From a virus (taxonomy: Duplodnaviria > Heunggongvirae > Uroviricota > Caudoviricetes), in the IMG/VR virus record IMGVR_UViG_3300036885_000228, positions 30,368 through 94,367 of that record: a stretch of 64,000 bases of DNA; one strand, given 5' to 3'. The translations under genes and the position numbers were made by a program. The notes below the pieces were generated by a model. That model did not search any database. It was not told the origin of the DNA and worked only from the letters and a program-made list of their open reading frames with translations. Each line of letters opens with the position of its first letter. Within the stretch, counting starts at the first letter, position 1. Shown here piece after piece: positions 36,326-57,554 of the stretch.

Positions 36326-37408
36326 ATGAAAATTGCACTCTTGCATCTATATTCAAATGTTCCTACAGGTGGAGAATATACTTATGCAATACATCTACAG
36401 TCAGGATTAAAGAAACTTGGACATGAATGTGATATTGTTGTGGAATCTAAGTCAGGGAGAACTTGTAAGAATCAAAAAGATAAGGGATTTCGAGTAGTAA
36501 AAAAAGACATGATGAAATCTGAATTAGAGAACTATGATTATGTGATTGTAATTTCAGGATATCTGAATGGTGGAGATTATAGCGTATTAGAATCGAACAA
36601 GTTTAAGATTGCATATATTGAACACAATTATAATCGATCATATAAAAGATATTTATATAATGATTTAATCAAAATTAGACCAGATGTCAAGATTTTTAGT
36701 GCAGGAAAACCAAGTGTTCGAATATACAAAACTTTTACAGACATTCCAGTTCATTTTGTACGTTTACCATTTGATATTGATTTGATGAAACTTAAGATTC
36801 AAAAGAAAGAGATTACTGCATTGAAGGCAGTTTTTCCTCACCGTATGAGTAGTGTTAAAAAGCCAGAATTCACATATAGATTTTTTGATAGTATTGGAGA
36901 CATTATTGAATGGTCATTAGATTTTTACGGTTCATACACTGAAAGTATAATTTTGTGGAGTATGTCAGATATGGTAGTTGATAATTTTTTCGATAAGACT
37001 TTCACTAAAGCAAATGTAGCCCCTTATATTTTTAAAAATAAAAATATTCGAATTTTACCGGCATACAATCCTCAGAGTGATTTGCCTGAAGTCTATTCAA
37101 ATTATAATCTCACTGTTCATTCGACTAAATGTCGTAATGATGGTGCAAGAATGGAATATGTATTGCTTGAATCAATATATTACGATACACCAATTATGTC
37201 AATGAAGAAGAATTGGGTAGACAATGTCCCGTATGATGATAGAGATGAATTATGGGTTGAGAATGAAGCGTATATTGATATGACAATAGAAAACATTCAA
37301 AAGTTTGCAAATGATATGAAGTTTAGAGAAGAAGTATTGGATAGACAGAAACAGATACTTAAATTATATGATGCAACAGAAATTGCTAGAAAATTCATTG
37401 AACTTTAA
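36326..37408 (+). CDS. Glycosyltransferase-like protein (GT-B/GT4-like N-terminus)
   Basis: MKIALLHLYSNVPTGGEYTYAIHLQSGLKKLGHECDIVV resembles GT4 N-terminal domains. Confidence 0.45.
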   Translation: MKIALLHLYSNVPTGGEYTYAIHLQSGLKKLGHECDIVVESKSGRTCKNQKDKGFRVVKKDMMKSELENYDYVIVISGYLNGGDYSVLESNKFKIAYIEHNYNRSYKRYLYNDLIKIRPDVKIFSAGKPSVRIYKTFTDIPVHFVRLPFDIDLMKLKIQKKEITALKAVFPHRMSSVKKPEFTYRFFDSIGDIIEWSLDFYGSYTESIILWSMSDMVVDNFFDKTFTKANVAPYIFKNKNIRILPAYNPQSDLPEVYSNYNLTVHSTKCRNDGARMEYVLLESIYYDTPIMSMKKNWVDNVPYDDRDELWVENEAYIDMTIENIQKFANDMKFREEVLDRQKQILKLYDATEIARKFIEL

Positions 37409-37859
37409 AGTTGAGCAATTCAAAAAGTTAAGGAAAGAAATGATTAGAAAAGGATGGTATGATAGTCCACCTTCTGGAAATTTGTTAGCTAAATACATGA
37501 TTATTGGAATTCGACCAGGGAGGACGATGAAAAAAGTAACAAAATCAAATACTGTTCTTGAACCGATTTTAGATAAATACATACCTGGGGATTATTATTT
37601 CACAAACATTGTCAAATATCCACATTCAGATAACAATCTACCAGATGTTAATGATATACTATTATCAATGGATCTTTTGATCTCTGAAATCAGATTAGTC
37701 AATCCGAAAGCCATCATTTCATTAGGCAATTGGGTATATCAGACACTTAAAGACAATGGTATTGATTCAGTAAAGATTTTCCACCCAAGTTATGTCTCAA
37801 GGACTAATAACCTTTTAAACTATGAGCAACAAATCAAGACGTCAATTTTTAAAACATGA
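37368..37859 (+). CDS. Uracil-DNA-glycosylase-superfamily (family-4-like) protein
   Basis: ..MIIGIRPG.. (GEAPG-like), ..FTNIVKY.., ..ISLGNWVYQTL.. and the C-terminal HPSYVSR (HPSPLN-like). Confidence 0.5.
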   Translation: MMQQKLLENSLNFKVEQFKKLRKEMIRKGWYDSPPSGNLLAKYMIIGIRPGRTMKKVTKSNTVLEPILDKYIPGDYYFTNIVKYPHSDNNLPDVNDILLSMDLLISEIRLVNPKAIISLGNWVYQTLKDNGIDSVKIFHPSYVSRTNNLLNYEQQIKTSIFKT

Positions 37860-38211
37860 AATAAGATATTATGATATTGTCGAATTATTTGATAGACAGA
37901 AGGAATTTCAGAGACTTGTCAAATCTGGAATTAAGTCAGGATTAACTAATTCTAAACGAAATTTATTGTATCGTGAAAATTGCCTTTTTACAATTGAAGA
38001 AATCATTGAGGGTTTACGATTTATCAATCATAAACCTTGGAAAAAAACTTCAGAAAAGGATGACATCAATAAATTGAAAGATGAATTGGTTGACGAATTT
38101 AGATTTTTCATCAACCGTTGCATATTGGTTGGTATGGATGAGAAGGAATTATTTTCTCGTTTGGGTAAATCATTTAACAAGACAAGTAAACGATTAAAAA
38201 ATAATTATTAG
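37822..38211 (+). CDS. Hypothetical basic protein
   Basis: 129-aa ORF. Confidence 0.35.
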   Translation: MSNKSRRQFLKHEIRYYDIVELFDRQKEFQRLVKSGIKSGLTNSKRNLLYRENCLFTIEEIIEGLRFINHKPWKKTSEKDDINKLKDELVDEFRFFINRCILVGMDEKELFSRLGKSFNKTSKRLKNNY

Positions 38212-39154: not shown

Positions 39155-40876
39155 TTGATTTTCCTGAAAGTGATATTTAATTTTATGGTCACAACTGGAG
39201 ACACCTCAATATTTCGTCGATCTACAACTTTAGATGGTTGGACGACTGCAATGACTACATCCGGTTCAGTTACGAGTGATCAATATTCACTATATACTAG
39301 TTATGCAGTTGCTCAAGGAGTTTTTTCTAATACAATATTAGACCCGGTAAGTACAGAATCATCAAAACGAGAACATAAAGTCAATGTATTAAAGCAAAAG
39401 ATGATTGACTTTTATTCAAATCAATTTGTAAATATAGGATTTGATGACATTAAACCTGACATGATAGCAATGAAGAAATGGTTTTTGTTATACGTCTCAA
39501 ATAAAAAATTAGATAAAAAGAGGGAAGTGAAATTATATCAGACAATATTAAAGTCATTTGATTCAGAATATCGGAAGTATAAAAAAGCAAAGAATAGAAA
39601 AGTTAAAGCAGTTTGTAGAGATGAGATATTGAAACTTTTCGATTTTACAACTAGACTACCAAGTGGAATATTTATTAAAGAAGTAAAGAAAAGAGTTGTA
39701 GAGATAAAAAAGAAAATCAAAATACTTGAAACCGAGATTAGTTGCAATACAAATTTTTATGAAACGATTCTTTCATTGACCGGAAACCGACTAATTGAAT
39801 CATTCGGTCATGCAAAGAATGATGAGTTTGGGTTTTATTTTATTACTAAACCACTTGAATTAGTATATACCAATACGAAATTCGTAGAATCGAATGGTAA
39901 GTTAGGTCGATTTTTAATCCGTCTATCCTGCTATGGTGGTCGACATGATATTAAAATTATAAATTTGACACGAAAGCATATTACGGGAGGACATGAACAT
40001 TTTTGCATAATCGAGAATGTATGTTGGGGAGAGAATGGAGAGTATATTAGTAAAATTTTAGATTCGGGTAATTTGAATACTTTAATTATTTCAATTATTT
40101 CATTTTTAGAAACTCCAGCATATAAAAGCCCATACATGAACCCAATTGAAAGGTGGTTTAATGAAGCATCTACAATTCACTATACAAAATTATCTGACAT
40201 AATCAAAATAAATAGAATAGTCAAAAAAGATATAATTACATTTTACAATGGGGGTGAAAGACCGACAAGTACAAATTCGGGGCAATGTGTCGAAATGATT
40301 CAAGGGGCAAGAGATCTCATTGGGTCAACAATAACATCAGAAGGGCGAGTTTATCGAGAAATTTTCTATGAACAATATCGAGTAGTATTACGAGAAGGTC
40401 CGGAAATGTTTAACCACGCATTACAATCAATTTTTTCAAATATCATAAATATTGAGGCACCTCGTAGATTTTCAAGATTAAGAGAATTTGCAACCCCCGA
40501 TTCAGAACATTTACGAGTTGTTGATTATTTTATTTCAGTAATTGAGTCAATTGTTAGACAAATTTCAAATTTTTATCCAGATACTGATTATACATTTGTC
40601 TTTTCTGAGATACATCATTCATTTAGTGATTGGGCTTCCCGCGGATATCAATATATTACATTTGGGAATCTCGACCAAATAGGATTGACAACTGATGCAT
40701 ATGTAATTATATCGATGATACCGAGAGATGAATTCATTTCAATGTTTGGACACCAACTTGGACGATTAGGTCGTCAATTTATAAATCGACAACAGATGAA
40801 TACATCACCAGCAACTTTTCATCCAATGTATGACCAACAATTGCATGGAAGATTAAGAGGTGTCACAACAAATTAG
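39155..40876 (+). CDS. Large protein of unknown function between the Ubl and JAB genes (candidate E2-like/target/effector)
   Basis: 573-aa ORF with no recognised motif. A conserved-looking Cys/His segment ..HITGGHEHFCIIENVCWGENG... Its stop overlaps the JAB gene start. Confidence 0.45.
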   Translation: MIFLKVIFNFMVTTGDTSIFRRSTTLDGWTTAMTTSGSVTSDQYSLYTSYAVAQGVFSNTILDPVSTESSKREHKVNVLKQKMIDFYSNQFVNIGFDDIKPDMIAMKKWFLLYVSNKKLDKKREVKLYQTILKSFDSEYRKYKKAKNRKVKAVCRDEILKLFDFTTRLPSGIFIKEVKKRVVEIKKKIKILETEISCNTNFYETILSLTGNRLIESFGHAKNDEFGFYFITKPLELVYTNTKFVESNGKLGRFLIRLSCYGGRHDIKIINLTRKHITGGHEHFCIIENVCWGENGEYISKILDSGNLNTLIISIISFLETPAYKSPYMNPIERWFNEASTIHYTKLSDIIKINRIVKKDIITFYNGGERPTSTNSGQCVEMIQGARDLIGSTITSEGRVYREIFYEQYRVVLREGPEMFNHALQSIFSNIINIEAPRRFSRLREFATPDSEHLRVVDYFISVIESIVRQISNFYPDTDYTFVFSEIHHSFSDWASRGYQYITFGNLDQIGLTTDAYVIISMIPRDEFISMFGHQLGRLGRQFINRQQMNTSPATFHPMYDQQLHGRLRGVTTN

Positions 40877-41639
40877 TATGAATGAAATTCAACCAATTTT
40901 ATTTTTTGAACCGAAGACATTTCAAAAACTGTGGAATTATACGATATTCTGTGATACTGAAATTTCTGGAATGGGATTAGTACGAGAACTTTCACCGAAT
41001 ATTTTTTTATGTTATGATATTAAAATATATCAACAAACATGTTCACCAGTAATGACAAAGATCGAAAGTGAAGAACTAGCAAAATGTTATACACAATTAG
41101 TAAGAAGAGGAAAGGGACAAGAAAAGGACATGAACCTTTGGTGGCATTCACATAACACGATGGGAGTATTTTGGTCACCACGAGACAGAAGTGAAATTAG
41201 TGAATGGTCAAATTCAGGATATGGTATTTCATTAGTAGTAAATAAAAGAATGGAATATTTATGTCGAGTTGATATTTTTAAACCTTTACAAATAATAATT
41301 CCAGATATTAAAATTGAACAGAAGACAATAGAAGAATATGATGAAATATTAGCAGAAAAATGTAAGAAAGAAGTTAAAAATAAAGTAAATTATTTATGGA
41401 AATCAAAGATCAAGACAGATACCTTAGACAAAGTGATGTATTTACCCCACCAGATAGTAAATCAACGCAAATTTCCATTGTTGGATGTGGGGGAATTGGA
41501 AGTTGGACTGGATACGTTTTATCAAAACTTGGGATTGCCAATATCACCTTATTCGACTTTGACATTGTTGAATCAAAAAATCTCGCCTCCCAATTTTTCG
41601 ATACAACCGATATCGGGAAAAACAAAGCCATTGCCTTAG
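40860..41639 (+). CDS. JAB/MPN (JAMM) metallopeptidase
   Basis: ..CDTEISGMGLV.. (upstream Glu), then WWHSHNTMGVFWSPRD, which is an exact H-x-H-x7-S-x2-D JAMM motif. The 3' 244 nt overlap the E1 gene in another frame. Confidence 0.7.
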   Translation: MSQQISMNEIQPILFFEPKTFQKLWNYTIFCDTEISGMGLVRELSPNIFLCYDIKIYQQTCSPVMTKIESEELAKCYTQLVRRGKGQEKDMNLWWHSHNTMGVFWSPRDRSEISEWSNSGYGISLVVNKRMEYLCRVDIFKPLQIIIPDIKIEQKTIEEYDEILAEKCKKEVKNKVNYLWKSKIKTDTLDKVMYLPHQIVNQRKFPLLDVGELEVGLDTFYQNLGLPISPYSTLTLLNQKISPPNFSIQPISGKTKPLP

Positions 41640-42055
41640 GTAAGAAATTAAGAAAGAATGGGACATTTGTAGTTTCAGTTGCTGCAGAATATGACATGAC
41701 TGGAAATGAAGACATTTTAATTGTTGCAGTTGACAGTATAAAAATAAGAAAGAACATAGCAAAGAAGTTAATCAAAAATGATCATTGGCCAAAGTACATC
41801 ATTGATGGTAGAATGGGATTGGAACAAATGGAAATATATACATATAGATCCCCAATGACCTGGTTGAATGATTTACCAGATGAAAATAATGTAGACCATG
41901 AACCTTGTACTGCTAAAGCAATTGCATATAATACATCAGTAATTGGTGGATTGATATCTAGCATCATTAAAAAGATAATAAAAGGTGAGAAATTTCCACA
42001 GAGTATCATATTTGATTTGATTACATATACAGCAATTATTCAGTCTGAATCTTAA
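41396..42055 (+). CDS. E1-like activating enzyme (ThiF/MoeB/HesA family)
   Basis: N-terminal RYLRQ. ..ISIVGCGGIGSWTGYVLSKLGIANITLFDFDIVESKNLASQFF.. fits the Rossmann GxGxxG plus D.D.V..SNL.RQ-like motif. Confidence 0.7.
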   Translation: MEIKDQDRYLRQSDVFTPPDSKSTQISIVGCGGIGSWTGYVLSKLGIANITLFDFDIVESKNLASQFFDTTDIGKNKAIALGKKLRKNGTFVVSVAAEYDMTGNEDILIVAVDSIKIRKNIAKKLIKNDHWPKYIIDGRMGLEQMEIYTYRSPMTWLNDLPDENNVDHEPCTAKAIAYNTSVIGGLISSIIKKIIKGEKFPQSIIFDLITYTAIIQSES

Positions 42056-45447: not shown

Positions 45448-45954
45448 ATGATAATATTCATTGAAGGCCCAGACGGGTCAGGAAAAACCGAATTAGTCAA
45501 CCGACTAAATCGAGGAGGATATGGACCAATTGTTCGACTACCTAAATCTCAGGAATTTTTCAAAAAAGGAAATATTGAAGAAGCTTCTTGGATTTTCAAT
45601 AACACAATCGGTCAACTAATTAGTAAATGTAATTTTATTGTTGATAGAGGTTATTTTTCTAGTTTAGTTTATTCAAAAATCTATAAACGAAAGACTGATT
45701 TATCTTATATTTGGGATATACATAAGAAATTAAAACCAATTATTATTTTTTTAGATGCTAAAGATTCAATTTTATTTGAACGCCGGCCAATTGATGCAGT
45801 AATAAAATCGAAGGAACGATTGAGAGTCAGTAATGAATATCGGAAAATGTATAATAAATTGAAAGCTAAAAAATTCAATTGTATTTATCGGATTGATACA
45901 TCAAAGTTGTCACCTCTTGAAGTTTATCAAAAAGCAACTAAATTTATTTGGTAA
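45448..45954 (+). CDS. dNMP/thymidylate-kinase-like P-loop kinase
   Basis: MIIFIEGPDGSGKTELVNRL is the TMK-type P-loop. Confidence 0.6.
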   Translation: MIIFIEGPDGSGKTELVNRLNRGGYGPIVRLPKSQEFFKKGNIEEASWIFNNTIGQLISKCNFIVDRGYFSSLVYSKIYKRKTDLSYIWDIHKKLKPIIIFLDAKDSILFERRPIDAVIKSKERLRVSNEYRKMYNKLKAKKFNCIYRIDTSKLSPLEVYQKATKFIW

Positions 45955-45958
45955 AATT

Positions 45959-46858
45959 ATGTCAAAATTCGTGATCGGTGGTGGTATTTCTGGCCTTATC
46001 TTTTCATATTATAATCCCAATTTTACAATTGTCTCTCCTGACATTGGAGGTCAATTGTCAAATGGTGTTTATAATATGACATGGATGCATCGGACACCTG
46101 AAACAGAAGGATTAGTAAAAGATTTAGGATTTGATTATGAGGTACACAAGACTCAAATAGGTTATTATTCAAATGGAGAAGTCTTTGACATATGTTCTCC
46201 CGAAATGAATTCGAGAATAATCAAAAGGAAAATGTCAGTATGGAATGATCTCGATAATAGATTTCAGATTTCAGATATGACATTGTCAGTTCCAGAAAAT
46301 TTTATTGATACAATTAAAATTGATTTTTCAAAAGTTATTGATGCAATGAAAAACAAAGTAAAGTATATTGAAGATAAGATTATGTCAATTTATCCTGATA
46401 AGATTAGAGGTCAGAATAATGATTACAATTACGATGAATTAATTTCGACTATCCCAGCAAATTTGTTCTGGTTGATATTTGATGGTATAACTATTAAACC
46501 ACTACTTAATTCTATCCCAGTGACATTCGTAGTGACAAAAAATCCTCCAGTCTGGTATAATAGTCGGTTCGAGATGATTTATATTTCAGATTTACAATTT
46601 TATACAAGAGTCTCAAAACGTGACAATGATTTCGTTTATGAATTCACTGGAGTGATGCCGAAAGAGGTATTTGAGAAATTATATCCTGATAGTAAGATTG
46701 ACAAATATTTCATTAACAGAACTGGAAGAATTATCACTTCTGAAAATAAACCACCTCAGGATAATATTCATTTTCTTGGGAGATTTGCCCAATGGTCGCA
46801 CCCGTCAAAAATACAAGATGTAATACGTTTTTCAAAAGATTATAAACTTAATAAATGA
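45959..46858 (+). CDS. UDP-galactopyranose-mutase-like FAD-dependent enzyme
   Basis: MSKFVIGGGISGL (GxGxxG). ..IGGQLSN..YNMTWMHRT.. and the C-terminal ..NIHFLGRFAQWSHPSKIQDVI.. parallel the Glf patterns (..IGGN.., ..NI.F.GR..Y.Y.DMD..I..). The ORF-track start 45893 overlaps the previous gene. Confidence 0.5.
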   Translation: MSKFVIGGGISGLIFSYYNPNFTIVSPDIGGQLSNGVYNMTWMHRTPETEGLVKDLGFDYEVHKTQIGYYSNGEVFDICSPEMNSRIIKRKMSVWNDLDNRFQISDMTLSVPENFIDTIKIDFSKVIDAMKNKVKYIEDKIMSIYPDKIRGQNNDYNYDELISTIPANLFWLIFDGITIKPLLNSIPVTFVVTKNPPVWYNSRFEMIYISDLQFYTRVSKRDNDFVYEFTGVMPKEVFEKLYPDSKIDKYFINRTGRIITSENKPPQDNIHFLGRFAQWSHPSKIQDVIRFSKDYKLNK

Positions 46859-46862
46859 TACT

Positions 46863-47816
46863 ATGTTACTTATTACTGGAGCATCGGGAATGATAGGCAC
46901 TTCATTTTGTGAAAAGTTATTAGAGTTAGGAATTGATTTCATAGGATTAGATAAGGTTCATAATCAATGGAATTCTGATGTAGATTCAAAAACTGCAATT
47001 ATTGATCTACTAAATGACTATCAAGTCAAATATTTTGTTGAAGGATTGAAAACTCAAAAGATTGATTTGATTGTACATTTGGCAGCAAATGCAAGAGTAA
47101 TTCCAGTAGTTCGGGATACTGCATTAGGGGTTCATAATTGCATGATGACAAATCAGGTTTATTGGATTGCTAGAGAATTGGGAATCAGAAGAATCTTTTT
47201 TGCATCTTCAAGAGAAGTATATGGTAATGAATTATTATCGACAAAAGGAGATTTACGTGAAAGTTTTGCTAAACATACTGATTGTTCAAATCAGTATGCT
47301 GCAAGTAAGATTTACGGAGAAGCATTAGCAAATGCATATCATACAACAGATGGAATTGATTCAATTATAGGAAGATTTTCGAATGTCTATGGACAATATG
47401 ATATGTCAGATAGATTTGTACCATTGATGATTAAAAGGTTATTGAAAAATGAAGATATTACAATCTATGGTGGGAAAGAAAAGTCTATGGACTTCACGTA
47501 TATTTCCGACACTGTCAATGGTATGATTATTCTATGTAAAGACTTTGACAAATTCAAAATGCAAGAAAAGGAAACTGGAATCTATAATATTTCATCTGGA
47601 AAAACATCAAGTTTATTTTCTGCAGCAGAATACTTAAAGAAAGAATTAAGGAGTAAATCAAAAATCATATTAGCAGAAAACCGAAAAGGAGAACCTATGT
47701 TCTATTGTGCAAATATTACAAAATCAAAATCAATAGGATATGAACCTAAGATTGAATTACGAGAAGGATTGACTAAATCATTAATTTACTATAGAAAACA
47801 ATATGCCTCACAATGA
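46863..47816 (+). CDS. NAD-dependent epimerase/dehydratase (SDR family)
   Basis: LLITGASGMIGTSFCEKLLELG Rossmann motif. YAASK (YxxxK). Confidence 0.7.
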   Translation: MLLITGASGMIGTSFCEKLLELGIDFIGLDKVHNQWNSDVDSKTAIIDLLNDYQVKYFVEGLKTQKIDLIVHLAANARVIPVVRDTALGVHNCMMTNQVYWIARELGIRRIFFASSREVYGNELLSTKGDLRESFAKHTDCSNQYAASKIYGEALANAYHTTDGIDSIIGRFSNVYGQYDMSDRFVPLMIKRLLKNEDITIYGGKEKSMDFTYISDTVNGMIILCKDFDKFKMQEKETGIYNISSGKTSSLFSAAEYLKKELRSKSKIILAENRKGEPMFYCANITKSKSIGYEPKIELREGLTKSLIYYRKQYASQ

Positions 47817-48849
47817 TTCACTCTCACCAAAAACTCACCCATATCGGATGCTATTTGGTCAAATACCTTTGACTAAATTTCATGATTACCGAAGAGCAAT
47901 TAACGTCGAAATGTTATATGCTCCTGATCGAGAGAAGATTATGCCAGCAGTTTATGATTTTTGTAAAGCCACGTGGAGTGAAGATGGAGAAGAATCTAGA
48001 CGAGCAACTCAAGAGGAAATGTCAGAAACATTTTCGACAATGTTATCAGGTAAGGCAATGAGTTTAGGTATTGAGACAATTGATTTTATTTTTAGAATTG
48101 AAGGAATTACTAGAATTGACACTCATCAAATTGTCAGAAATAGAGTTGGTGTGACTTACAGTCAACAATGTACAGGTGATAGATTTTTGACTCACGGGAA
48201 TGTATTGATTGAGGAATGTATTGCTAAGAATAAGGATGTATTAGATTCAGTCATCAATGCTACATTGGAAACTAAATTGGCTTATGCAAGAATGATTGAT
48301 AGTTTAGACGTATCAATTCAAACTGCAAGAGAAATTACACCACATAATTTTGAGACTTTTATTTTTATGAAGATAAATCTCATGACATTGATTCAATTTT
48401 ATTCAAAACGAATTGATGATGGGAGTCAAACTTGGCCAATAAATATTATTGCTCAACAAATGGCAGATAGAGTTTGTTCAGTTTATCCAGAATTACAAAA
48501 AGTTTTTGATAAAAGTAAAACCTCTTTCAAATTTCAAACTGAAGCATCTAAAGATAGAACAAATACATATTCAACAAGTCTTTACATTCCAAAGAATGGT
48601 GATGAATTTGACTATCATGATAGAGATTTCCTTTATCAAAAGACAAAAGTTGATATGAATTTTACAAATACACCAATTGATGATTTGTATTATTGGGGTT
48701 CAACTCTTATCTCAAAAGAAAAATATGACACAATTACGAAATTGTATCATGAACTTGACATTTTGGTGGATAAGGAACATTACTCAAATGAGAAAATTTT
48801 AGAATTAGCAAAAGAATTAAATAGTCGAATTATAACTGAAATTATATAA
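47803..48849 (+). CDS. Divergent ThyX-like (flavin-dependent thymidylate synthase family) protein
   Basis: ..ITRIDTHQIVRNRVGVTYSQQCTGDRF.. parallels the ThyX signature ..tRqlvRHRxxSxsqxSxRY, with His replaced by Asn and Ser by Cys. A downstream ..QTAREITPHNFETFIFMKINLMTLIQFYSKR.. parallels the ThyX ..ArE.AR..LP..........N.R.L.hF..LR. Confidence 0.55.
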   Translation: MPHNDSLSPKTHPYRMLFGQIPLTKFHDYRRAINVEMLYAPDREKIMPAVYDFCKATWSEDGEESRRATQEEMSETFSTMLSGKAMSLGIETIDFIFRIEGITRIDTHQIVRNRVGVTYSQQCTGDRFLTHGNVLIEECIAKNKDVLDSVINATLETKLAYARMIDSLDVSIQTAREITPHNFETFIFMKINLMTLIQFYSKRIDDGSQTWPINIIAQQMADRVCSVYPELQKVFDKSKTSFKFQTEASKDRTNTYSTSLYIPKNGDEFDYHDRDFLYQKTKVDMNFTNTPIDDLYYWGSTLISKEKYDTITKLYHELDILVDKEHYSNEKILELAKELNSRIITEII

Positions 48850-48851
48850 TT

Positions 48852-49364
48852 ATGACAAAAATTAGACAAAAAATAAAAGATCTTGTACAACAGATTTATG
48901 TCTATGGAACTCCTCGATACATCAAACGTTTGACTCAAGGGACTAAAGAATTGACGAATACAACTCTTGAATTTGAGTCAATTGATATTCTTAACTTGAA
49001 ACTGACAGAGAATGAAAAAGAAGTTCTAGATGATGAAAACCAAATAGTATTACCATTGATACAATCTCAGTTAGATGCAGTTGTCACTCTGTTGATTTCA
49101 GATAAACTTTCACGTAGAGGATTAGTGTATAATCATATTGATGATTTGGCCTCTCCAGTATATCCCTGTTTGTCAGTTTTTCATTTTCTTTGTGATAAAA
49201 CTAGATTGAATTTGACAGTTTTCATTCGGTCTAGCAATGTTGAGAAAATGTTAGCAATTGATTTGGTTTTTTTAAATGACATCTTAATTTCAATTTCAAA
49301 AAAATTAGAATTGGAAGCAGGAAAGGTGTCAATATTTATTTCGTCGGCACATATAATATGTTAG
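48852..49364 (+). CDS. Truncated ThyA-fold protein (thymidylate synthase / dNMP hydroxymethylase-like core)
   Basis: ..VYPCLSVFHFLCDKTRLNLTVFIRSSNV..LEAGKVSIFISSAHII aligns with ThyA ..[43 protein letters not shown]. It is only 170 aa and lacks the ThyA N- and C-terminal segments. Confidence 0.45.
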   Translation: MTKIRQKIKDLVQQIYVYGTPRYIKRLTQGTKELTNTTLEFESIDILNLKLTENEKEVLDDENQIVLPLIQSQLDAVVTLLISDKLSRRGLVYNHIDDLASPVYPCLSVFHFLCDKTRLNLTVFIRSSNVEKMLAIDLVFLNDILISISKKLELEAGKVSIFISSAHIIC

Positions 49365-51589
49365 AAGAAATTAAATCAAAACGCAAGTTTTTTAACTCAT
49401 ATTCCTTTAAAGACACAGTTGTACTTGAATATCAGGAAAATGGGATTAAAATGAAGGAAGTTCACAATAACTTCGATTGGTATTTGGTTGTCACATTGAT
49501 TGATTTTCAAAGAATTGAAAAAGTTATTGAGGATTTAAAATCATCTAGATTATTGAATAGGTATGAGGTCATTGGTGATTACGTAAAATTATTTACTGAA
49601 AATAAAAATACAAAATACGAGATAGATGGAAAGCAATCACTAATTAAATGGTTAAAAGATAATGACATTAAACCATTGGAGTCAGATTTATCTTCAGATA
49701 AGAGATATTGTGTTGATAGAGACATTGAAATTGAAGACCATTATTCAATTTTATATTTTGACATTGAAACAGATGACTCAAAACCAACAATTCAAGTTGG
49801 TTCAGAAAGAATTTTATCATTAGCAGCAATTGATAGAGAAGGTACTACATATTATCTTACAAATCCTCGTAGCGAAAAGAAATTATTAGAAGACATCTTT
49901 GAGTTATTTCAAAAGTATGATATTATTACTGGTTGGAATAGTGGACCATTTGATTTGACGTACATTAAGGAACGGATGAAATTTTGGAAAATTCAAAAGT
50001 TTTGGAAAGGAATTACACATATTGACATGTTAGATAGATTTCGACATATTTTTAGATTTGATAATCATATTGAAAAATTTTCACTTGAATATATTTCACA
50101 GCATTTTTTAGGTCATGGAAAAGTTAAGCATGATGGAATTAAAATAATTGAGCTTTATCGTAAGTATCCAGATAAACTAAAGGAGTATAATATTCAAGAT
50201 GTAGTATTATTAAAAGAATTAGATGCAAAGATTGGATGTTTAGATATGATGATTTTACAATGCCAATGGTGTAAAACTTTTCCAAGTCAATTTTATATTT
50301 CAGAATTATTAGATAATTATATTCTTAGAGTTGCTCATGCAAATGGAGTTTATTGCCCAACTAGAGATTATGATACCGAAGATATTCATTATCAAGGAGC
50401 ATTTGTATTTGAACCAAATCGTGGAGTACATAGAAATGTACATATATTCGATTTCAAAAGTCTATACCCGACATTAATTATGTCGTCGAATATTGGATTT
50501 GATACATTAGATGAAGATGGAAAAATATTAAACCCAGGAACTGGAAAACATTTTCGTGATGATAAAAGTTCAATAATCAAATTGACAATAGAAGGATTAA
50601 TTGGTAAACGAAAAGAATATAAAAAGAAAAAGATTCAAATGATACATGATAAAACGAATTCTGGACCAGAATGGGAAAGAGTTGTTAGTGATGAGATTGT
50701 AGTTAAAGAATTATCAAATTCAGTATATGGGATAATGGGGAAAAGAGATGGACGATGGTATTCGTATGATGTAGCAACATCAATTACGATGTTTGGTCAA
50801 TGGGTGTTAAAATTTGCAAAACAATTTTTTGAAGAGGAAGGATTTAGTGTAATTTATGGTGATACAGATTCGACATTTGTTAAAGATGATGACAAAGAAA
50901 CATTGAAGTTGGAAATGAAAAAAACACTCGATAAATTTCATAAGAAATTACAAACAGTATTGAAAGAACAATACAATATGTCAGATTGCCGAATTGAACT
51001 TGAATATGAGAAAACTTATGGCATGTTATTAATGGTCGACAAAAAAACATATACAGGACGATTATCAATGTTAGAAGGAAAAGAAACAAATGAAATGTAT
51101 ACAAGAGGGATGGATTATATTAAGAAGAACAATATTAGTATTGCTTGTGATAAGCAATTGGAATTAATCAAAAGGGTTCTATATTCTGACAAGTTTACAG
51201 TTGATGAAGCAGAAGATTTTATTCAGGAATTACTTGACTTTACTAGAACTGGACAAATCAAAATGGATGACTTAATAATTCAGGTCAAATTGAGTAGACC
51301 GATTGAGACGTACAAGACTAATTTACCACATGTAAATATTGCAAAGCAAATTATTGCTAAAGAGGGTGTTTTACAGTCAAATGAGATAGAGTATATTGTA
51401 GTAGATTCAAAAACTAAGAAAAATATAATTCCTGAAGAGTATCAAGGTGAATACGATAAACTCTACTATTGGAACAATAAAATTTATCCGATGCTTCAGA
51501 GAGTTCTAGAAGTTGTATTTCCTAATAATAACTGGCAGAAATATCATTTTAAGAAGTTTGTCAGTGAACGACAAATGACATTACTTTAA
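49358..51589 (+). CDS. Family B DNA polymerase
   Basis: Exo I ..LYFDIETDD... Pol motif ..VIYGDTDSTFV.. (YGDTDS). Confidence 0.85.
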   Translation: MLEEIKSKRKFFNSYSFKDTVVLEYQENGIKMKEVHNNFDWYLVVTLIDFQRIEKVIEDLKSSRLLNRYEVIGDYVKLFTENKNTKYEIDGKQSLIKWLKDNDIKPLESDLSSDKRYCVDRDIEIEDHYSILYFDIETDDSKPTIQVGSERILSLAAIDREGTTYYLTNPRSEKKLLEDIFELFQKYDIITGWNSGPFDLTYIKERMKFWKIQKFWKGITHIDMLDRFRHIFRFDNHIEKFSLEYISQHFLGHGKVKHDGIKIIELYRKYPDKLKEYNIQDVVLLKELDAKIGCLDMMILQCQWCKTFPSQFYISELLDNYILRVAHANGVYCPTRDYDTEDIHYQGAFVFEPNRGVHRNVHIFDFKSLYPTLIMSSNIGFDTLDEDGKILNPGTGKHFRDDKSSIIKLTIEGLIGKRKEYKKKKIQMIHDKTNSGPEWERVVSDEIVVKELSNSVYGIMGKRDGRWYSYDVATSITMFGQWVLKFAKQFFEEEGFSVIYGDTDSTFVKDDDKETLKLEMKKTLDKFHKKLQTVLKEQYNMSDCRIELEYEKTYGMLLMVDKKTYTGRLSMLEGKETNEMYTRGMDYIKKNNISIACDKQLELIKRVLYSDKFTVDEAEDFIQELLDFTRTGQIKMDDLIIQVKLSRPIETYKTNLPHVNIAKQIIAKEGVLQSNEIEYIVVDSKTKKNIIPEEYQGEYDKLYYWNNKIYPMLQRVLEVVFPNNNWQKYHFKKFVSERQMTLL

Positions 51590-53392: not shown

Positions 53393-54856
53393 ATGAGCAA
53401 GTTTAACAAAAAAAAGTTAGGAACAAAGACAATCAATAAAGCAGGAGGTCAAGCATTTAAGGAGACTACTGAGTTAGAACTCGTTTCTCTTTTACTTACT
53501 TCTTTCTTAAAGGACAAATTTTACGAAAAAGAAGAAGAGCAATTAGAAAGATTGCAGAATTTAGTCGGTGGGTTAAAAGACAAAAAATTTGCTGCTAAAG
53601 CTGCAATTTATGCTCGTACAGTTTTTGGAATGAGATCAATTACTCATGCATTGATTGGAGAAATTTGTAAGATGGTCAAAGGTGAACAATGGGTTAAGAA
53701 TGCAGTAGAAAAAGCAGTTTATCGTCCTGATGACATGCTTGAAATTCTTGCTTATGTTAGAGACGATAAAACTACACCAATTCCAAATTCATTGAAAAAG
53801 GGATTAAGATTAGCAATCAATAAGTTTGACAAGTATTCTTTAGCTAAGTATAAAGGAGGAGGACACGAATTCAAAATGGTCGATTTAATTAATTTAGTAC
53901 ATCCAAAAGGTTCTGGTAAATTGGCTGAAATTTTTAAAGAATTAGTTGAAGGGAAATTGAAGACTGAAAATACTTGGGAAAGAAATTTATCAGATGCTGG
54001 ACAAAAAGTTAAAGATATTGAAGACGAAAATGAGAAAGAGGAAGCATTGAAAGAAGCAAAGGATAATGTCTGGAAAGACATGATTAAGGAAAAGAAAATT
54101 GGAACATTTGCTTTATTGAGAAATCTTCGTAACATTGTTCAGCAATCTCCAGATTCAATTGACGATGCTTGTGAATTACTTGTTGATGAAAAGAAAATTA
54201 AAAATTCATTGATTCTGCCTTTTAGATTCAAAACTGCAATGGACGAATTAGGTAAGGTAGATGGTAGTAGGAAAATTTTAACTGCAATTAGTAAAGCATT
54301 GGATATTTCAGTTTCAAATGTGCCAAAATTTGATGGGAAGACTCTTGTAGTAATTGATAAATCTGGTTCGATGAATGGGAAACCAATAGAAATTGCTTCT
54401 ATCTTTGGTGCAATATTATACAAATCAAATGATGCAGATTTAATGTATTTTTCTGAAGGTACAAAGAATGTCAATCTTAATACCGAGGATAGTACAATGA
54501 CAATTGCTAATGAGATTGAACACGATGGTTGGGGTGGAGGAACTGATTTTACTGTAATTTTTCCAGCACTTACAAAAAAGTATGATAGGATTATAATCTT
54601 AAGTGATATGCAAGGTTGGGTTAATGATTGGAGAGGAGAATCAACACCAATAAGAGGATTTAGAGATTATAAAATAAGACTTGGTATCAATCCGAAGATT
54701 TATTCATTCGATCTAAACGGGTATGGGACACTTGAGTTCCCCGAGAATGATGTATTCTGCATTGCAGGATGGAGTGATAAAATTTTTGATGTAATGAAGA
54801 TTATGGAACAAGATAGAAATGCATTAATTAAAAAGATAAACGAAATTGAACTTTAA
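53393..54856 (+). CDS. rsr: Ro60 orthologue (TROVE domain plus vWA domain)
   Basis: N-terminus MSKFNKKKLGTKTINKAGGQAFKETTELELVSLLLTSFLKDKFYE...AAIYARTVFGMRSITHAL is TROVE-like. C-terminus ..LVVIDKSGSMNG.. is the vWA MIDAS DxSxS motif. Total 487 aa, as expected for Ro60. Confidence 0.75.
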   Translation: MSKFNKKKLGTKTINKAGGQAFKETTELELVSLLLTSFLKDKFYEKEEEQLERLQNLVGGLKDKKFAAKAAIYARTVFGMRSITHALIGEICKMVKGEQWVKNAVEKAVYRPDDMLEILAYVRDDKTTPIPNSLKKGLRLAINKFDKYSLAKYKGGGHEFKMVDLINLVHPKGSGKLAEIFKELVEGKLKTENTWERNLSDAGQKVKDIEDENEKEEALKEAKDNVWKDMIKEKKIGTFALLRNLRNIVQQSPDSIDDACELLVDEKKIKNSLILPFRFKTAMDELGKVDGSRKILTAISKALDISVSNVPKFDGKTLVVIDKSGSMNGKPIEIASIFGAILYKSNDADLMYFSEGTKNVNLNTEDSTMTIANEIEHDGWGGGTDFTVIFPALTKKYDRIIILSDMQGWVNDWRGESTPIRGFRDYKIRLGINPKIYSFDLNGYGTLEFPENDVFCIAGWSDKIFDVMKIMEQDRNALIKKINEIEL

Positions 54857-55204: not shown

Positions 55205-55275
55205 GCGACTGTAAGATAATGGCAATCTGACAGTTTTCCAAACTGTAAACGTGGGTCCGATTCCCACTAGTCGCA
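55205..55275 (+). tRNA. tRNA-Gly(UCC)
   Basis: Acceptor gcgactg/tagtcgc. D arm agat-aatggca-atct. Anticodon arm acagt-tttccaa-actgt (anticodon tcc). T arm gtggg-tccgatt-cccac with an unusual C at position 55. Discriminator a. No encoded CCA. Confidence 0.7.
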
Positions 55276-55294
55276 CAAAATTGTTTATTTGTAC

Positions 55295-55431
55295 GTGAAT
55301 AGAAGTGACATCAGAGTTACTTCTCATTGTAAGAGAGTGGTCATTGGTTCGAGTCCAATTTTTAGTCGAAAGGCTAAAATAGCTCAGTTGGTAGAGCACT
55401 TAAATTTCTCTGATAAATTTTCTCTATTCAC
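55295..55431 (+). ncRNA. Y-RNA-like RNA with tRNA-like module (T arm plus GAAA-capped acceptor-like stem plus D arm), closed by long terminal helices
   Basis: T arm attgg-ttcgagt-ccaat (55343-55359). Stem ttttagtc / GAAA loop / ggctaaaa (55360-55379). D arm gctc-agttggta-gagc (55382-55397). No anticodon arm follows. Terminal helix gtgaataga(55295-55303)/tctattcac(55423-55431) and inner helix atcagag(55310-55316)/ctctgat(55408-55414). Lies 440 nt downstream of the Ro60 gene. Confidence 0.55.
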
Positions 55432-55449
55432 TTATAAGTAAATAATCAA

Positions 55450-56280
55450 ATGAAGTATAATCGAGACAAGACATTGAAAACAACAAAATTAGATAATGAT
55501 GCATATTTTACACCTATTGAAATATCAAAAAGATTAATAGATAAGACATTTGAAATTATAGGTATTGATAATATTACAGAGAGTATAGACCCAAGTGCCG
55601 GAAATGGAAGTTTTAGTAAACAAATTAGGAATTGTACTGCTTATGACATTGAGTCTAATGATGAGACAATTATTAAACAGGATTTTTTACAATTACAATT
55701 AGATTATAAAAAGGGAAGATTATTCATTACGAATCCACCATTTGGTCCACAAAATTTTTTATCGGTTAAATTTTATTCAAAATGTTGTGATGAAGGTGAT
55801 TATATTGCATTTATTCAACCAATAAGTCAATATAAAAATTCTTTTCAGTTGTATAAATTTGATTTAATTTATAGTGAAGATTTAGGAATTCAAAACTATT
55901 CAGGAAGAAATATTCATTGTTGTTTTAATATTTATCGTCGCCCATTGTTTGGGATATTAAATAAACAAAAAAGATGGAAATTTGATGATTTTAAGATTTT
56001 TGAAAGACGTAATGTTAAGGGGAATATTATACAATTTAAAAGTGATTACGATTTTAGAATATGTGGTTGGGGTGCTAAATGTGGAAAGATATTAGATGAT
56101 ACTGAACTTTATGCTAAAGAATACGCAGTTACAATATATAATCAAGACGTTAAAGATAAGATATTTAATGCAATAAAAACTATTGACTTAAAGAAAGATT
56201 TCAATATTGTTAGTACTCCAAATCTTTCAATGCAAATGCTATATAGATATTTACAAAATAAGATTCCAGAATTAAAATGA
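55450..56280 (+). CDS. N6-adenine DNA methyltransferase
   Basis: Motif I ..IDPSAGNGSFSK... Motif IV ..LFITNPPFGP.. ((D/N)PP(F/Y)). Confidence 0.7.
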   Translation: MKYNRDKTLKTTKLDNDAYFTPIEISKRLIDKTFEIIGIDNITESIDPSAGNGSFSKQIRNCTAYDIESNDETIIKQDFLQLQLDYKKGRLFITNPPFGPQNFLSVKFYSKCCDEGDYIAFIQPISQYKNSFQLYKFDLIYSEDLGIQNYSGRNIHCCFNIYRRPLFGILNKQKRWKFDDFKIFERRNVKGNIIQFKSDYDFRICGWGAKCGKILDDTELYAKEYAVTIYNQDVKDKIFNAIKTIDLKKDFNIVSTPNLSMQMLYRYLQNKIPELK

Positions 56281-56657
56281 ATCCAATTCCAGGAAAATTG
56301 AAGCAAAAGATGAATGAAGATGAATATTACAAAGTTTGTTGTTTATCAGGAAGGAAAAATTGTGTAATAAATTGGCACCACACATACACATATTCAGGAA
56401 AACAAATTAATGAAGAATGGTGCATAATGCCAATATGGGAAGAATTACATAATTGGGCATTTAGTAAATTAGCAGTTCATAATAATAAAGAGACAATGGA
56501 ATTCGTAAAGTATCTTTCATTATTAAGAGCAAATATTTCTGACTTAATCAAAAGGATGCCGAAAAAAAACTGGATGCAAGAGTTTAAAGTATTAGAGAAA
56601 CGATTTAAAGACAAAAAGGAGGATATGTTAAAAATTTATCAAAATCAAAATGTCTGA
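56277..56657 (+). CDS. Hypothetical Cys/His-rich protein
   Basis: 126 aa with ..YKVCCLSGRKNCVINWHHTY... Start overlaps the upstream stop (ATGA). Confidence 0.4.
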   Translation: MNPIPGKLKQKMNEDEYYKVCCLSGRKNCVINWHHTYTYSGKQINEEWCIMPIWEELHNWAFSKLAVHNNKETMEFVKYLSLLRANISDLIKRMPKKNWMQEFKVLEKRFKDKKEDMLKIYQNQNV

Positions 56658-56982
56658 AACACCAATTGTGTCTAGCATAAAAAAGTATCTAGATATTTTA
56701 GAAAAACAAGGAAAACTTGTCTATCAACGAAACAATTCGGGAGCAATGCCAATACAATCAAAAGGAGGAACGAGATTTATTCGATTCGGGAAGACAGGAA
56801 GCCCTGATTTCTACGTGTTTGTAAAACACGGTATGGTATTATCGGTTGAAGTTAAAGATTCAAAAGGCAAGCAAAGTGAAGGACAGATAGAATTTCAGAA
56901 AAAGTTAGAGGCACTTGATCATAGCTATTTTGTAGTTCGTTCGTTGGACGATATAGTCAAAATTTTAAAGAAATTTATATGA
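56650..56982 (+). CDS. VRR-NUC domain nuclease (PD-(D/E)xK)
   Basis: ..GSPDFYVFVKHGMVLSVEVKDSKGKQSEGQIEFQ.. has the D...E-V-K catalytic arrangement typical of VRR-NUC. Confidence 0.55.
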   Translation: MSETPIVSSIKKYLDILEKQGKLVYQRNNSGAMPIQSKGGTRFIRFGKTGSPDFYVFVKHGMVLSVEVKDSKGKQSEGQIEFQKKLEALDHSYFVVRSLDDIVKILKKFI

Positions 56983-57045
56983 GACCAATTAAAAATTATT
57001 ATTACTGGTGTAATTATTTTAACTGCTTTTTTAGCAGGATTTTTT

Positions 57046-57130
57046 GCATTAGTAGACGACTATGGAAGTCGGCTTGATTGTAGATCAAGCATCCGTAAGG
57101 GTCATAAGAGTTCGATTCTCTTCTAATGCA
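57046..57130 (+). tRNA. tRNA-Tyr(GUA), type II
   Basis: Acceptor gcattag/ctaatgc. Anticodon arm cttga-ttgtaga-tcaag (anticodon gta). Long variable arm atcc-gtaa-gggt. T arm aagag-ttcgatt-ctctt. Confidence 0.75.
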
Positions 57131-57135
57131 CAATT

Positions 57136-57207
57136 GGAAGAGTAGCATAACGGTCAATGCAATGGTTTGAAGCACCATAGAAGAAAGTTCAATTCTTTCC
57201 TCTTCCA
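57136..57207 (+). tRNA. tRNA-Phe(GAA)
   Basis: Acceptor ggaagag/ctcttcc. D arm gcat-aacggtca-atgc. Anticodon arm atggt-ttgaagc-accat. T arm gaaag-ttcaatt-ctttc. Confidence 0.8.
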
Positions 57208-57215
57208 CTATAAAT

Positions 57216-57286
57216 GCTATAGTAGGCAAGAGGCTAGCCACGAGATTGCAAATCTTGAAACATGGGTTCGACTCCCATCTATAGCT
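57216..57286 (+). tRNA. tRNA-Cys(GCA)
   Basis: Acceptor gctatag/ctatagc. Anticodon arm cgaga-ttgcaaa-tcttg (one G-U pair). T arm atggg-ttcgact-cccat. The D stem is only 3 bp. Confidence 0.65.
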
Positions 57287-57291
57287 CAAAT

Positions 57292-57364
57292 GCAGGGGCA
57301 TGTTCCAAGGCTGGCGGTTGCGACTCCAAATCGTGACGGAAGAGTTCGATTCTCTTACCCTGTG
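57292..57364 (+). tRNA. tRNA-like gene with CCA (Trp) anticodon loop; imperfect cloverleaf
   Basis: T arm aagag-ttcgatt-ctctt. Anticodon-like arm tgcga-ctccaaa-tcgtg. Acceptor gcagggg/accctgt has one mismatch. No convincing D stem, so it may be degenerate. Confidence 0.35.
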
Positions 57365-57373
57365 CTATTAGGT

Positions 57374-57446
57374 TGGCAGGTATCATAACTGGTAATGATT
57401 TCGACTGTTAATCGAAAATATACTGGTTCGAATCCAGTCTTGCCAG
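57374..57446 (+). tRNA. tRNA-Asn(GUU)
   Basis: Acceptor tggcagg/cttgcca (U1-A72, as in many bacterial tRNA-Asn). D arm tcat-aactggta-atga. Anticodon arm ttcga-ctgttaa-tcgaa. T arm actgg-ttcgaat-ccagt. Confidence 0.8.
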
Positions 57447-57476
57447 CAAATATTACACTGAGAATTTAACATTATT

Positions 57477-57547
57477 GCCGGTGTAATTCAAAGGTTAGAA
57501 TGGCAGTTCTGTAAACTGCTCATAGGGTTCGAATCCTCTCACCGGCT
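57477..57547 (+). tRNA. tRNA-like gene with UGU (Thr) anticodon; atypical
   Basis: Perfect acceptor gccggtg/caccggc. D arm attc-aaaggtta-gaat. Anticodon arm gcagt-tctgtaa-actgc with C at position 33. The T stem is weak (taggg/cctct). Confidence 0.45.
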
Positions 57548-57554
57548 CACATTA

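Follow-up and report, generated by a model that had tools for sequence, protein, structure and literature searches.

Candidate cytosine hypermodification genes beside the DNA polymerase of a phage and its relatives

The window analysed here is a stretch of 64,000 nucleotides (64 kb) from the Caudoviricetes virus record IMGVR_UViG_3300036885_000228 (positions 30,368 to 94,367). We were interested in five open reading frames (ORFs) at 45448-49364, which encode a nucleotide kinase, a flavoprotein, a sugar epimerase/dehydratase and two proteins with the folds of ThyX and ThyA, and which adjoin the gene of the family B DNA polymerase (PolB). A first reading of the letters alone, called the original prediction below, had proposed that these genes hypermodify pyrimidines in the phage DNA, together with a glycosyltransferase (GT) gene and a uracil-DNA glycosylase (UDG)-like gene located 8 kb upstream. 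Comparison with related phage loci and with characterised enzymes points to a conserved module, with cytosine as its probable target. The window is a phage region of ~30% GC with nearly all genes on the plus strand, and contains a tail module, RNA-repair genes, replication genes and seven tRNA genes. No megablast match of the window DNA to a close cultured phage was found, and the best matches of the polymerase had at most ~25% identity; in the collection searched, no cultured phage is related to this one. The genes in question are as follows (amino acids, aa).

36326..37408, plus strand: GT360, a 360-aa GT-B-like protein, candidate DNA glycosyltransferase (Glycos_transf_1, E 0.058; PglH, 0.003)
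37368..37859, plus strand: UDG-superfamily protein, family-4-like, with a non-canonical motif A (PF03167, 1.8e-10)
37822..38211, plus strand: all-alpha NTP pyrophosphatase of the dUTPase_2 / T4 gp56-like type, candidate dCTPase (PF08761, 6e-5; phrog_12184, 1.5e-11)
45448..45954, plus strand: Tmk-like P-loop nucleotide kinase (Thymidylate_kin, 4.7e-11; phrog_761, 1e-15)
45959..46858, plus strand: X310, a minimal FAD-binding flavoprotein of the superfamily of UDP-galactopyranose mutase (UGM), protoporphyrinogen oxidase (PPOX) and amine oxidase, closest to UGM
46863..47816, plus strand: NAD-dependent NDP-sugar epimerase/dehydratase of the extended short-chain dehydrogenase/reductase (SDR) type, a variable insert (PF01370, 7.8e-42; phrog_540, 1e-57)
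47803..48849, plus strand: Cys-variant ThyX-like flavoprotein of 348 aa, with a 110-aa C-terminal extension (PF02511, 8.9e-20)
48852..49364, plus strand: mini-ThyA, a 170-aa ThyA-fold protein (PF00303, 6.7e-6)
49358..51589, plus strand: PolB (PF00136, 7e-52)

All five consecutive plus-strand ORFs named in the original prediction were present, tightly packed, and its calls of a TMP-kinase-like protein and of an SDR agree with the Pfam and PHROG matches given above. The all-alpha NTP pyrophosphatase gene had been overlooked. It overlaps the UDG-like gene and lies with it and GT360 in the group 8 kb upstream of the five-ORF block. In what follows, L001-L055 denote the related phage loci compared with the window, and P0122, P0142, P0143, P0146, P0149 and P0151 are database proteins. 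Residues of mini-ThyA are numbered by E. coli ThyA and those of the ThyX-like protein by T. maritima ThyX.

The last protein before the polymerase had been described as a ThyA-fold fragment that keeps the PC nucleophile and the RS phosphate-binding block. Both elements were indeed retained, as the equivalents of C146, R166 and S167. The protein is, however, no fragment. While a word-indexed homologue search with mini-ThyA gave 2 proteins only, an exhaustive phmmer search gave 41 cluster representatives, mostly of 150-235 aa, and mini-ThyA is a member of this family. The protein had also been said to lack the ThyA termini. The C-terminal ~50 residues are missing, but the N-terminus is present, and the internal ThyA residues ~51-108 are absent instead. 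The ThyA folate contacts E58, W80 and W83 sit in this segment. Mini-ThyA ends just after H207, as does RB69 gp48, so that the folate-closing C-terminus of ThyA is absent. Single-sequence PDB searches with the ThyX-like protein, mini-ThyA and X310 gave no matches, and family profiles were needed. The mini-ThyA profile matched ThyA structures with 1e-25 over ThyA residues 109-214, with a weak match at the N-terminal strand, and its second-best PDB match was the L. casei N229D mutant. In the family, R126', R166, S167 and H207 are invariant, and C146 and an Asp at N177 are near-invariant. In the window protein, C106, R88, R126 and S127 align to ThyA C146, R126', R166 and S167, and D137 aligns to N177. 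An Asp at this position (N177D) is the change that converts a thymidylate synthase to cytosine specificity. The window protein also reads R-S-S-N at 166-169, thus carrying D169N.

These two residues form the signature of a characterised enzyme group. The ThyA homologues gp48 of Escherichia phage RB69, gp80 of Acinetobacter phage DLP3 and gp216 of Rhizobium phage RL38J1 synthesise 5-hydroxy-dCMP in a flavin- and O2-dependent reaction; they carry N177D, and D169N is reported as the diagnostic residue. Nine diverse D169N homologues were tested and 9/9 made 5hodC (Lee et al., Nucleic Acids Res 2026; PMC13326640). The PDB entries 9iqc/9iqu, ~99% identical to RB69 gp48, were matched over the full length by the mini-ThyA profile (1.5e-22), and direct comparison of the family with gp48 gave an hhalign probability of 99% (E 3e-18) and 4e-27 with the family hidden Markov model (HMM). 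Mini-ThyA is thus assigned by its residues as a cytosine-type ThyA homologue, with the 5hodCMP-synthase-type signature in the window. Because of N177D and the diagnostic D169N (PMC13326640), the base is predicted to be 5-hydroxycytosine (5hoC) rather than a 5-hydroxymethyl pyrimidine. The earlier proposal that ThyA/ThyX paralogues hydroxymethylate dU or dC is revised accordingly, to a cytosine target and a predicted 5-hydroxyl. The best tblastn matches of the window mini-ThyA in cultured phages were PAU gp182, Atu_ph04 and Acinetobacter T4-like enzymes, Acj9 gp42 being among the matches. When PAU gp182, Atu_ph04 and Melin_080 were aligned, all three showed N169, D177 and E143. An acidic residue at L143, as in gp48, gp80 and MilA, is not claimed as diagnostic.

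N169 is also found in P0122, P0151, the clade of Geobacillus phage GR1, L005, L027, L028 and L036. However, Asp at this position (D169) is found in most close relatives of the module, namely L001, L003, L004, L009, L010 and L012-L014. This favours another version of the same pathway logic, in which the base is 5-hydroxymethylcytosine (5hmC), as in T4, or 5-methylcytosine, and in which the one-carbon unit reaches mini-ThyA from the ThyX-like protein or the ThyX-like protein acts on dCMP with its own Cys. The N169 of the window protein, reported as diagnostic of hydroxylation, speaks against such a product, and we regard this version as unlikely.

Two other assignments around mini-ThyA were rejected. 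It is not a substitute for dCMP deaminase, as L005 has both a dCMP deaminase and mini-ThyA, and in L017-L019 the 140-aa gene that follows the ThyX-like gene does not encode a divergent mini-ThyA. In Sphingomonas phage PAU (L055, gp180-gp186), gp182 lies beside genes for dTDP-glucose 4,6-dehydratase and dTDP-4-dehydrorhamnose 3,5-epimerase, and three unannotated proteins of 385-410 aa are encoded in the same neighbourhood. This may be a rhamnosylated 5hoC cluster.

The ThyX-like gene ends 3 nt before the mini-ThyA start. The canonical ThyX signature is RHRxxSxxxxSxR(Y) plus His53, which in the T. maritima enzyme stacks against the pterin of the folate. The altered signature noticed in the original prediction (RNR for RHR, Cys for Ser) was confirmed as R112-N-R114...C123, and the substrate-loop Cys is kept family-wide. 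In both subclades the loop reads S(Q/A)QC(T/S)GD, with Cys at the Ser88 position, a two-residue insertion (Thr-Gly in the window) and Asp. In place of H53 the window protein has Met, and its relatives have Leu or Val. The GR1 subclade retains H79 (RHR), for which the window subclade has Q, N, T, M or A. The R90 equivalent varies across the family. R78, R80, R147 and R174, which make the dUMP phosphate/O4 and FAD contacts, are conserved in every member aligned. The window protein scored 44.3 bits against TIGR02170, below the cut-off of 87.9. Its AlphaFold2 model (pLDDT 89) has the ThyX fold plus the C-terminal extension, which remained unmatched. The top Foldseek matches were the UMP/dUMP methylase of polyoxin biosynthesis (polyoxin PolB) and the atypical C. 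glutamicum ThyX (E 5e-9 to 4e-7), and the core gave target-normalised TM-scores of 0.56-0.72 to ThyX and polyoxin PolB. The protein thus shares with these enzymes the fold and the four Arg residues, but differs in H53, the RHR motif, Ser88 and the C-terminal extension. No literature description of a Cys-variant ThyX-like protein was found. One relative encodes both a canonical ThyX with intact H53 and RHR...S.RY and a Cys-variant protein (L026:4841-5530 and L026:10001-10984).

These features bear on the alternatives in different ways. For a 5hmC product, the invariant Cys and Asp of the loop are in favour, as is the chemistry of ThyX, which passes via an exocyclic methylene that can be trapped by water (PMC8989533, summary). 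The family-wide loss of H53 is against it. We know of no ThyX homologue acting on dCMP. A further alternative is a thymidine/uracil hypermodification, in which the ThyX-like protein makes 5-hydroxymethyl-dUMP, which is incorporated and then decorated, and the UDG-like protein is repurposed for the modified base. The retained dUMP-binding Arg residues fit this scheme. ThyX paralogues had been said to make 5-hydroxymethyl pyrimidines in other phages, but no demonstrated precedent was found, only the hypothesis of the SP-15 authors that a ThyX paralogue is a hydroxymethyl-dUMP synthase. SP-15 gp130 was rejected as a precedent, as it is unrelated to the ThyX-like family and its role is hypothesised only. 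Moreover, mini-ThyA, the sole module enzyme with an experimentally characterised close counterpart, is of the cytosine type, and the kinase and the pyrophosphatase match the RB69 cytosine pathway. We regard a thymidine/uracil pathway as very improbable.

The kinase matched TIGR00041 with 1.3e-11, below the cut-off. The NTP pyrophosphatase reached 23.8 bits against PF08761 (cut-off 22.9) and 7e-9 against phrog_173, and is a candidate dCTPase, the substrate being dCTP or dUTP. For the UDG-like protein, the original call of family 4 was upheld at the superfamily level by PF03167 (41.5 bits, cut-off 24.3), but the family model TIGR00758 gave only 1.7e-7 and 31 bits, where the cut-off is 125. The UDG family 4 consensus is GEAPG for motif A and HPS for motif B. 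In the window protein motif A is GIRPG, with no acidic residue, and motif B HPS is present.

Given that the best family matches are thymidylate kinase, ThyX, dUTPase_2 and UDG, the genes could also form an ordinary module of thymidylate supply and uracil exclusion, in which the ThyX-like protein works as thymidylate synthase beside a dTMP kinase and a dUTPase, and the UDG removes uracil. X310 would then be an accessory redox protein, mini-ThyA a relic or regulator, and the sugar genes would act on glycans of the virion or the host. The equivalents of R78, R80, R147, R174 and E58 are kept in the ThyX-like protein, and a second GT (GT4-FkbM) is present in the tail module. However, all four family matches are well below the NCBIfam equivalog cut-offs, and the ThyX signature is altered family-wide (H53 lost, Ser88 changed to Cys with the inserted TGD, R90 equivalent variable). 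The L026 phage possesses a canonical ThyX besides the Cys-variant. Mini-ThyA is conserved, with its catalytic Cys and phosphate-binding Arg/Ser intact and with an Asp specifying cytosine, not uracil. Together with the kinase fusions and the GT of L001 described below, these points make an ordinary module quite unlikely.

The distribution of the genes was then compared among phages. The module was conserved beside a DNA polymerase (PolB, PolA or PolC-type) in more than 30 distinct phage lineages, and it comprises the NTP pyrophosphatase, the UDG-like protein, the Tmk-like kinase, X310, the Cys-variant ThyX-like protein and mini-ThyA. More than 120 ThyX-like homologues (49-92% identity) were found, on contigs up to 96 kb. 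Kinase, X310, ThyX-like and mini-ThyA genes adjoin the polymerase on contigs of 96 kb, 94 kb and 93 kb and on many others. The order in seven fetched contexts was [NTP-pyrophosphatase/UDG] - kinase - X310 - (sugar genes) - ThyX-like - mini-ThyA - polymerase (PolB or PolA), and the replicative polymerase abuts the module in essentially all related loci. Single-sequence IMG/VR scans with the ThyX-like and ThyA-like proteins gave no matches. An alignment-based scan was needed, which added 38 loci, including a more distant subclade with the cultured Geobacillus phage GR1. By HMM scans, 23 of 35 non-redundant ThyX-like loci had a mini-ThyA domain, and the others are mostly truncated contigs. The mini-ThyA gene was usually directly downstream of the ThyX-like gene, often overlapping it. 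X310 was present in ~15 of the 35, and a dUTPase_2-like domain in nearly all loci. The central idea of the original prediction, a pyrimidine hypermodification with glycosylation in which both thymidylate-synthase-like genes are non-canonical, is supported by this pattern, as the kinase, X310, ThyX-like protein and mini-ThyA recur together beside the polymerase.

Several domain fusions were found. Kinase and mini-ThyA are joined in single proteins of 302-319 aa in L027, L028 and L032-L035 (e.g., L028:15656-16564), which also argues against mini-ThyA being a relic in an ordinary thymidylate module. X310 is fused to dUTPase_2 in five loci (L015, L036, L038, L040, L048) and in four database proteins (P0142, P0143, P0146, P0149). 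The NTP pyrophosphatase is fused to the UDG-like domain in 270-308 aa proteins of seven loci. In one locus a 962-aa PolB carries an N-terminal UDG-like domain (L045:7748-10636), and for this reason the UDG-like protein is suggested to be a partner of the polymerase and not a repair enzyme acting on its own. As a separate gene, dUTPase_2 directly follows the kinase-mini-ThyA fusion in L027 and L028, and lies right after the ThyX-like gene in L030-L032, L034 and L035.

Gene order also bears on the distant upstream genes. In L004 the order is dUTPase_2-like, GT360 homologue, kinase, X310, UDP-glucose dehydrogenase (UGDH), SDR, ThyX-like, mini-ThyA. As the GT360 homologue is flanked here by the dUTPase_2-like gene and the kinase, we count the window's GT and UDG genes as part of the module despite the 8-kb distance. 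Their inclusion in the pathway by the original prediction was thus borne out by the gene order of L004 and L001.

In the subclade with an RHR motif (L021, L022, L028-L046), the ThyX-like gene is immediately preceded by genes for a YfbR-like HD 5′-deoxynucleotidase and a nucleoside 2-deoxyribosyltransferase-like protein. Such genes are consistent with depletion of a canonical dNMP, which would also suit a thymidine/uracil pathway. Geobacillus phage GR1 (L050, OK896991), cultured and thermophilic, encodes at 24.7-35 kb an HD protein and, around its PHP-domain polymerase, a 459-aa GT, a P-loop kinase, a nitroreductase, the ThyX-like protein (RHR...SAQCTGDRW), a 151-aa N169 mini-ThyA and a dUTPase_2. 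The presence of modified cytosine in GR1 DNA is predicted. An initial assignment of the nitroreductase-type flavoprotein to many loci was withdrawn, as it is confined to the GR1 clade.

In that clade, the nitroreductase-type flavoprotein is directly upstream of the ThyX-like gene, where the window clade has X310 with or without the sugar-gene insert. The true start of X310 is the ATG at 45959, as judged from the family N-termini. It has 299 aa, versus 363-390 aa for the bacterial UGMs among the PDB matches. No Pfam (including GLF), PHROG or NCBIfam match was found for X310, and the PDB profile search reached UGMs only at E ~0.05, PPOX and amine oxidases scoring nearly as well. The UGM architecture includes a helical uridine-binding domain. 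In the X310 model there are few helices at this place, and most of the helical domain is missing. The original prediction had counted this UGM-like flavoenzyme among the sugar genes. UGM is still the closest family, but X310 is found where no sugar dehydrogenase/epimerase gene was found (L003, L005, L007, L009, L010, L015, L036-L040, L048) and several phages have it fused to a dCTPase-like domain, and for these reasons it is a core member of the nucleotide module and not an accessory sugar gene. X310 may act as a minimal sugar mutase, in line with the UGM of the RL38J1 5hoC pathway (PMC13326640), or be a nucleotide-level flavoprotein or flavin partner. Between X310 and the ThyX-like gene in L009 (7408-7998) and L012, a cytidylyltransferase-like protein is encoded, which matches models of FAD synthetase as well as of sugar-1-P/heptose adenylyltransferase. 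Its product could be a sugar donor, or FAD destined for the flavoproteins next to it.

The best NCBIfam matches of the SDR were dTDP-glucose 4,6-dehydratase and GalE, all below the cut-offs. An SDR gene occupies the same place in L001, L004, L013 and L014, and in L001 and L004 it is preceded by a truncated UGDH gene; no UGDH was found in the window. Since the SDR, with or without UGDH, is inserted inside the module between X310 and the ThyX-like gene yet is missing from many relatives, the sugar genes look like a variable decoration on a conserved core. For 36326-37408, the original GT-B call had weak support from Glycos_transf_1 (the match covering residues 239-336) and PglH. GT360 was 29% identical (E 8e-49) to the 366-aa L004 protein between the dUTPase_2-like gene and the kinase, and no relatives were found in the IMG/VR or metagenome scan. 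In L001, a TET-associated glycosyltransferase (PF20691, 1e-23) occupies exactly the slot of the L004 GT360 homologue. This position favours DNA rather than a glycan as the sugar acceptor. A TET-associated DNA glycosyltransferase within the L001 module is not expected of an ordinary thymidylate module, and as its family is defined by association with 5hmC-forming TET enzymes, it also lends some weight to 5hmC as the base. The tail module encodes a tail protein of 1181 aa (window 434-3979), in which SASA acetylesterase, glycine-rich and RIFT domains were recognised, and near it a GT4-FkbM methyltransferase fusion (11005-12825). This set is probably directed at glycans and separate from the DNA module. 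The alternative in the original prediction, that the sugar genes decorate host or phage glycans, is thus unlikely for the module genes and plausible for the separate GT4-FkbM gene.

Taken together, we consider it fairly probable that the module replaces dC before replication with a C5-modified dC, probably 5-hydroxy-dC, which is then glycosylated in DNA. This view is based on homology, signature residues and synteny, with the mechanistic steps inferred, and its link to the 5hoC pathway rests on homology to experimentally characterised proteins. In the proposed scheme, the all-alpha NTP pyrophosphatase would convert dCTP to dCMP. Mini-ThyA would bind dCMP via the Asp at N177, attack C6 with its conserved Cys and install an oxygen function at C5. 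With D169N, the window enzyme would carry out a flavin/O2-dependent 5-hydroxylation to 5-hydroxy-dCMP, as RB69 gp48 does, while the D169 sister phages would possibly make 5-hydroxymethyl-dCMP instead. The modified dCMP would be phosphorylated by the Tmk-like kinase, and host NDP kinase and the adjacent PolB would then place it in DNA. After replication, GT360 would glycosylate the C5 hydroxyl, with an NDP-sugar donor tailored by the SDR and possibly X310. The ThyX-like protein and X310 would be flavoproteins tightly coupled to mini-ThyA. The ThyX-like protein would be either a flavin holder or reducer serving the mini-ThyA hydroxylation, or the phage's own thymidylate synthase.

Several observations weigh against this scheme. 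First, the window mini-ThyA has 170 aa, versus 234-247 aa for the gp48-type homologues aligned, and is thus ~65 aa shorter. The hhalign comparison showed a single ~45-aa deletion relative to gp48 residues ~57-105, a segment which plausibly contributes to cofactor binding, and the D169N rule was derived from longer proteins. At L143, the window protein has Val where gp48, Melin_080, Atu_ph04 and PAU gp182 have Glu. Closely related cassettes differ in having D169 or N169, and the meaning of this residue may therefore be another one here. Second, no other thymidylate synthase was found in the 64-kb window, and the ThyX-like protein may be no more than the source of dTMP for a genome of 30% GC. 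A plain uracil-exclusion/dTTP-supply set would likewise include dUTPase, UDG and Tmk. Third, GT360 gave no significant match in Pfam, in the PDB profile search, by hhalign against two GTs (where a short motif only was aligned) or by blastp against the RB69/PAU/Melin neighbours. In 88 neighbour proteins from the X310-containing loci, 62 Pfam families were found, and the 25 most frequent of these include no GT family.

An extension of the cytosine scheme, which we hold to be doubtful, is that the Cys-variant ThyX-like protein and mini-ThyA form a new two-component flavoenzyme, with X310 (in GR1, the nitroreductase) recycling the flavin and with the product set by a switch at 169. Mini-ThyA, its cofactor segment lost, would still activate C5 of dCMP with its Cys/Asp machinery. 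The ThyX fold, with the folate-stacking His lost and the loop remodelled, would present the flavin as a hydroperoxide or N5-methylene. Asn or Asp at 169 would then decide between 5-hydroxy-dCMP and 5-hydroxymethyl-dCMP from one scaffold.

If the cytosine scheme is true, the recently discovered 5hoC route reaches far past T4-like and Pootjes-like phages. It would then be present in a large group of phages, most of them uncultivated, that differ in their replication machineries and among which is a thermophilic Geobacillus phage. The module contains three uncharacterised enzyme families, namely a minimal ThyA fold of 150-180 aa, a Cys-loop ThyX fold and a minimal UGM-like flavoprotein, and its proteins bear on a question raised in the literature, the change of the thymidylate synthase fold from folate-based to flavin-based chemistry. 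Hypermodified DNA resists restriction enzymes and can bias sequencing, so spotting the module would aid the interpretation of viromes. The enzymes are also possible tools for making modified DNA.

Other genes of the window were noted as well. A TROVE/Ro60-like protein (PF05731, 3e-17) is encoded at 53393-54856, followed by seven tRNA genes (Gly, Tyr, Phe, Cys, Asn, Thr, Ala) at 55205-57917. Of the Rfam families for Y-RNA, none reached its gathering score. A TROVE gene is also present in L001 and L004, near Fic and RecA genes. An RNA ligase (PF09414) and a polynucleotide kinase/phosphatase (PNKP), at 21503-22801 and 24347-25213, make up a T4-like RNA-repair pair. A ThiF/E1-like gene (41396-42055; PF00899, 2e-19) overlaps a 259-aa ORF (40860-41639), and the 573-aa protein upstream of this ORF (39155-40876) gave no matches. 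A DUF559/Vsr-like endonuclease at 29113-29784 showed a weak match (5e-4, below the cut-off) to a PvuRts1I-like N-terminal domain. PvuRts1I targets modified cytosine.

The module was finally compared with known cytosine pathways. In the 5hoC clusters, a Tmk-like nucleotide kinase is accompanied by GT-B DNA glycosyltransferases and sugar-nucleotide genes, while the all-alpha dCTPase gene has another place in the genome (PMC13326640). The kinase family HMM matched RB69 gp45 (6e-13) and Melin_078, of the DLP3 gp78 type (8e-15), and the dUTPase_2 family HMM matched the RB69 gp56 dCTPase (1.5e-13). The RB69 5hoC cluster likewise abuts its DNA polymerase. The window and RB69/DLP3/RL38J1 have in common a ThyA homologue with N177D and D169N that ends shortly after H207, a Tmk-like kinase in the cluster, an all-alpha dCTPase type, one or more glycosyltransferases (in the window, the candidate GT360), NDP-sugar genes and adjacency to the polymerase. 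In contrast to these phages, the window synthase has 170 aa, with the ~45-aa internal gap and Val at L143, and is translationally coupled to the ThyX-like protein and preceded by the UGM-like X310. No counterpart of the ThyX-like protein or X310 was found in the RB69 cluster examined or in the published gene table for RB69, DLP3 and RL38J1 (PMC13326640). The sugar genes also differ, the window having an SDR and not the arabinose-5-P route, and no similarity of GT360 to RB69 or DLP3-type GTs was detected.

Compared with the glucosyl-5hmC pathway of T4 (gp56, gp42, gp1, alpha/beta-glucosyltransferases), the window enzyme differs in N169 and in the missing ThyA folate-contact segment, and the kinase is Tmk-like. 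T4 gp1 is a different type of dNMP kinase. The logic proposed for the window is nevertheless that of T4, in which dCTP is depleted, dCMP is modified via a Cys/Asp ThyA-fold enzyme, and the product is phosphorylated, polymerised and glycosylated in DNA.

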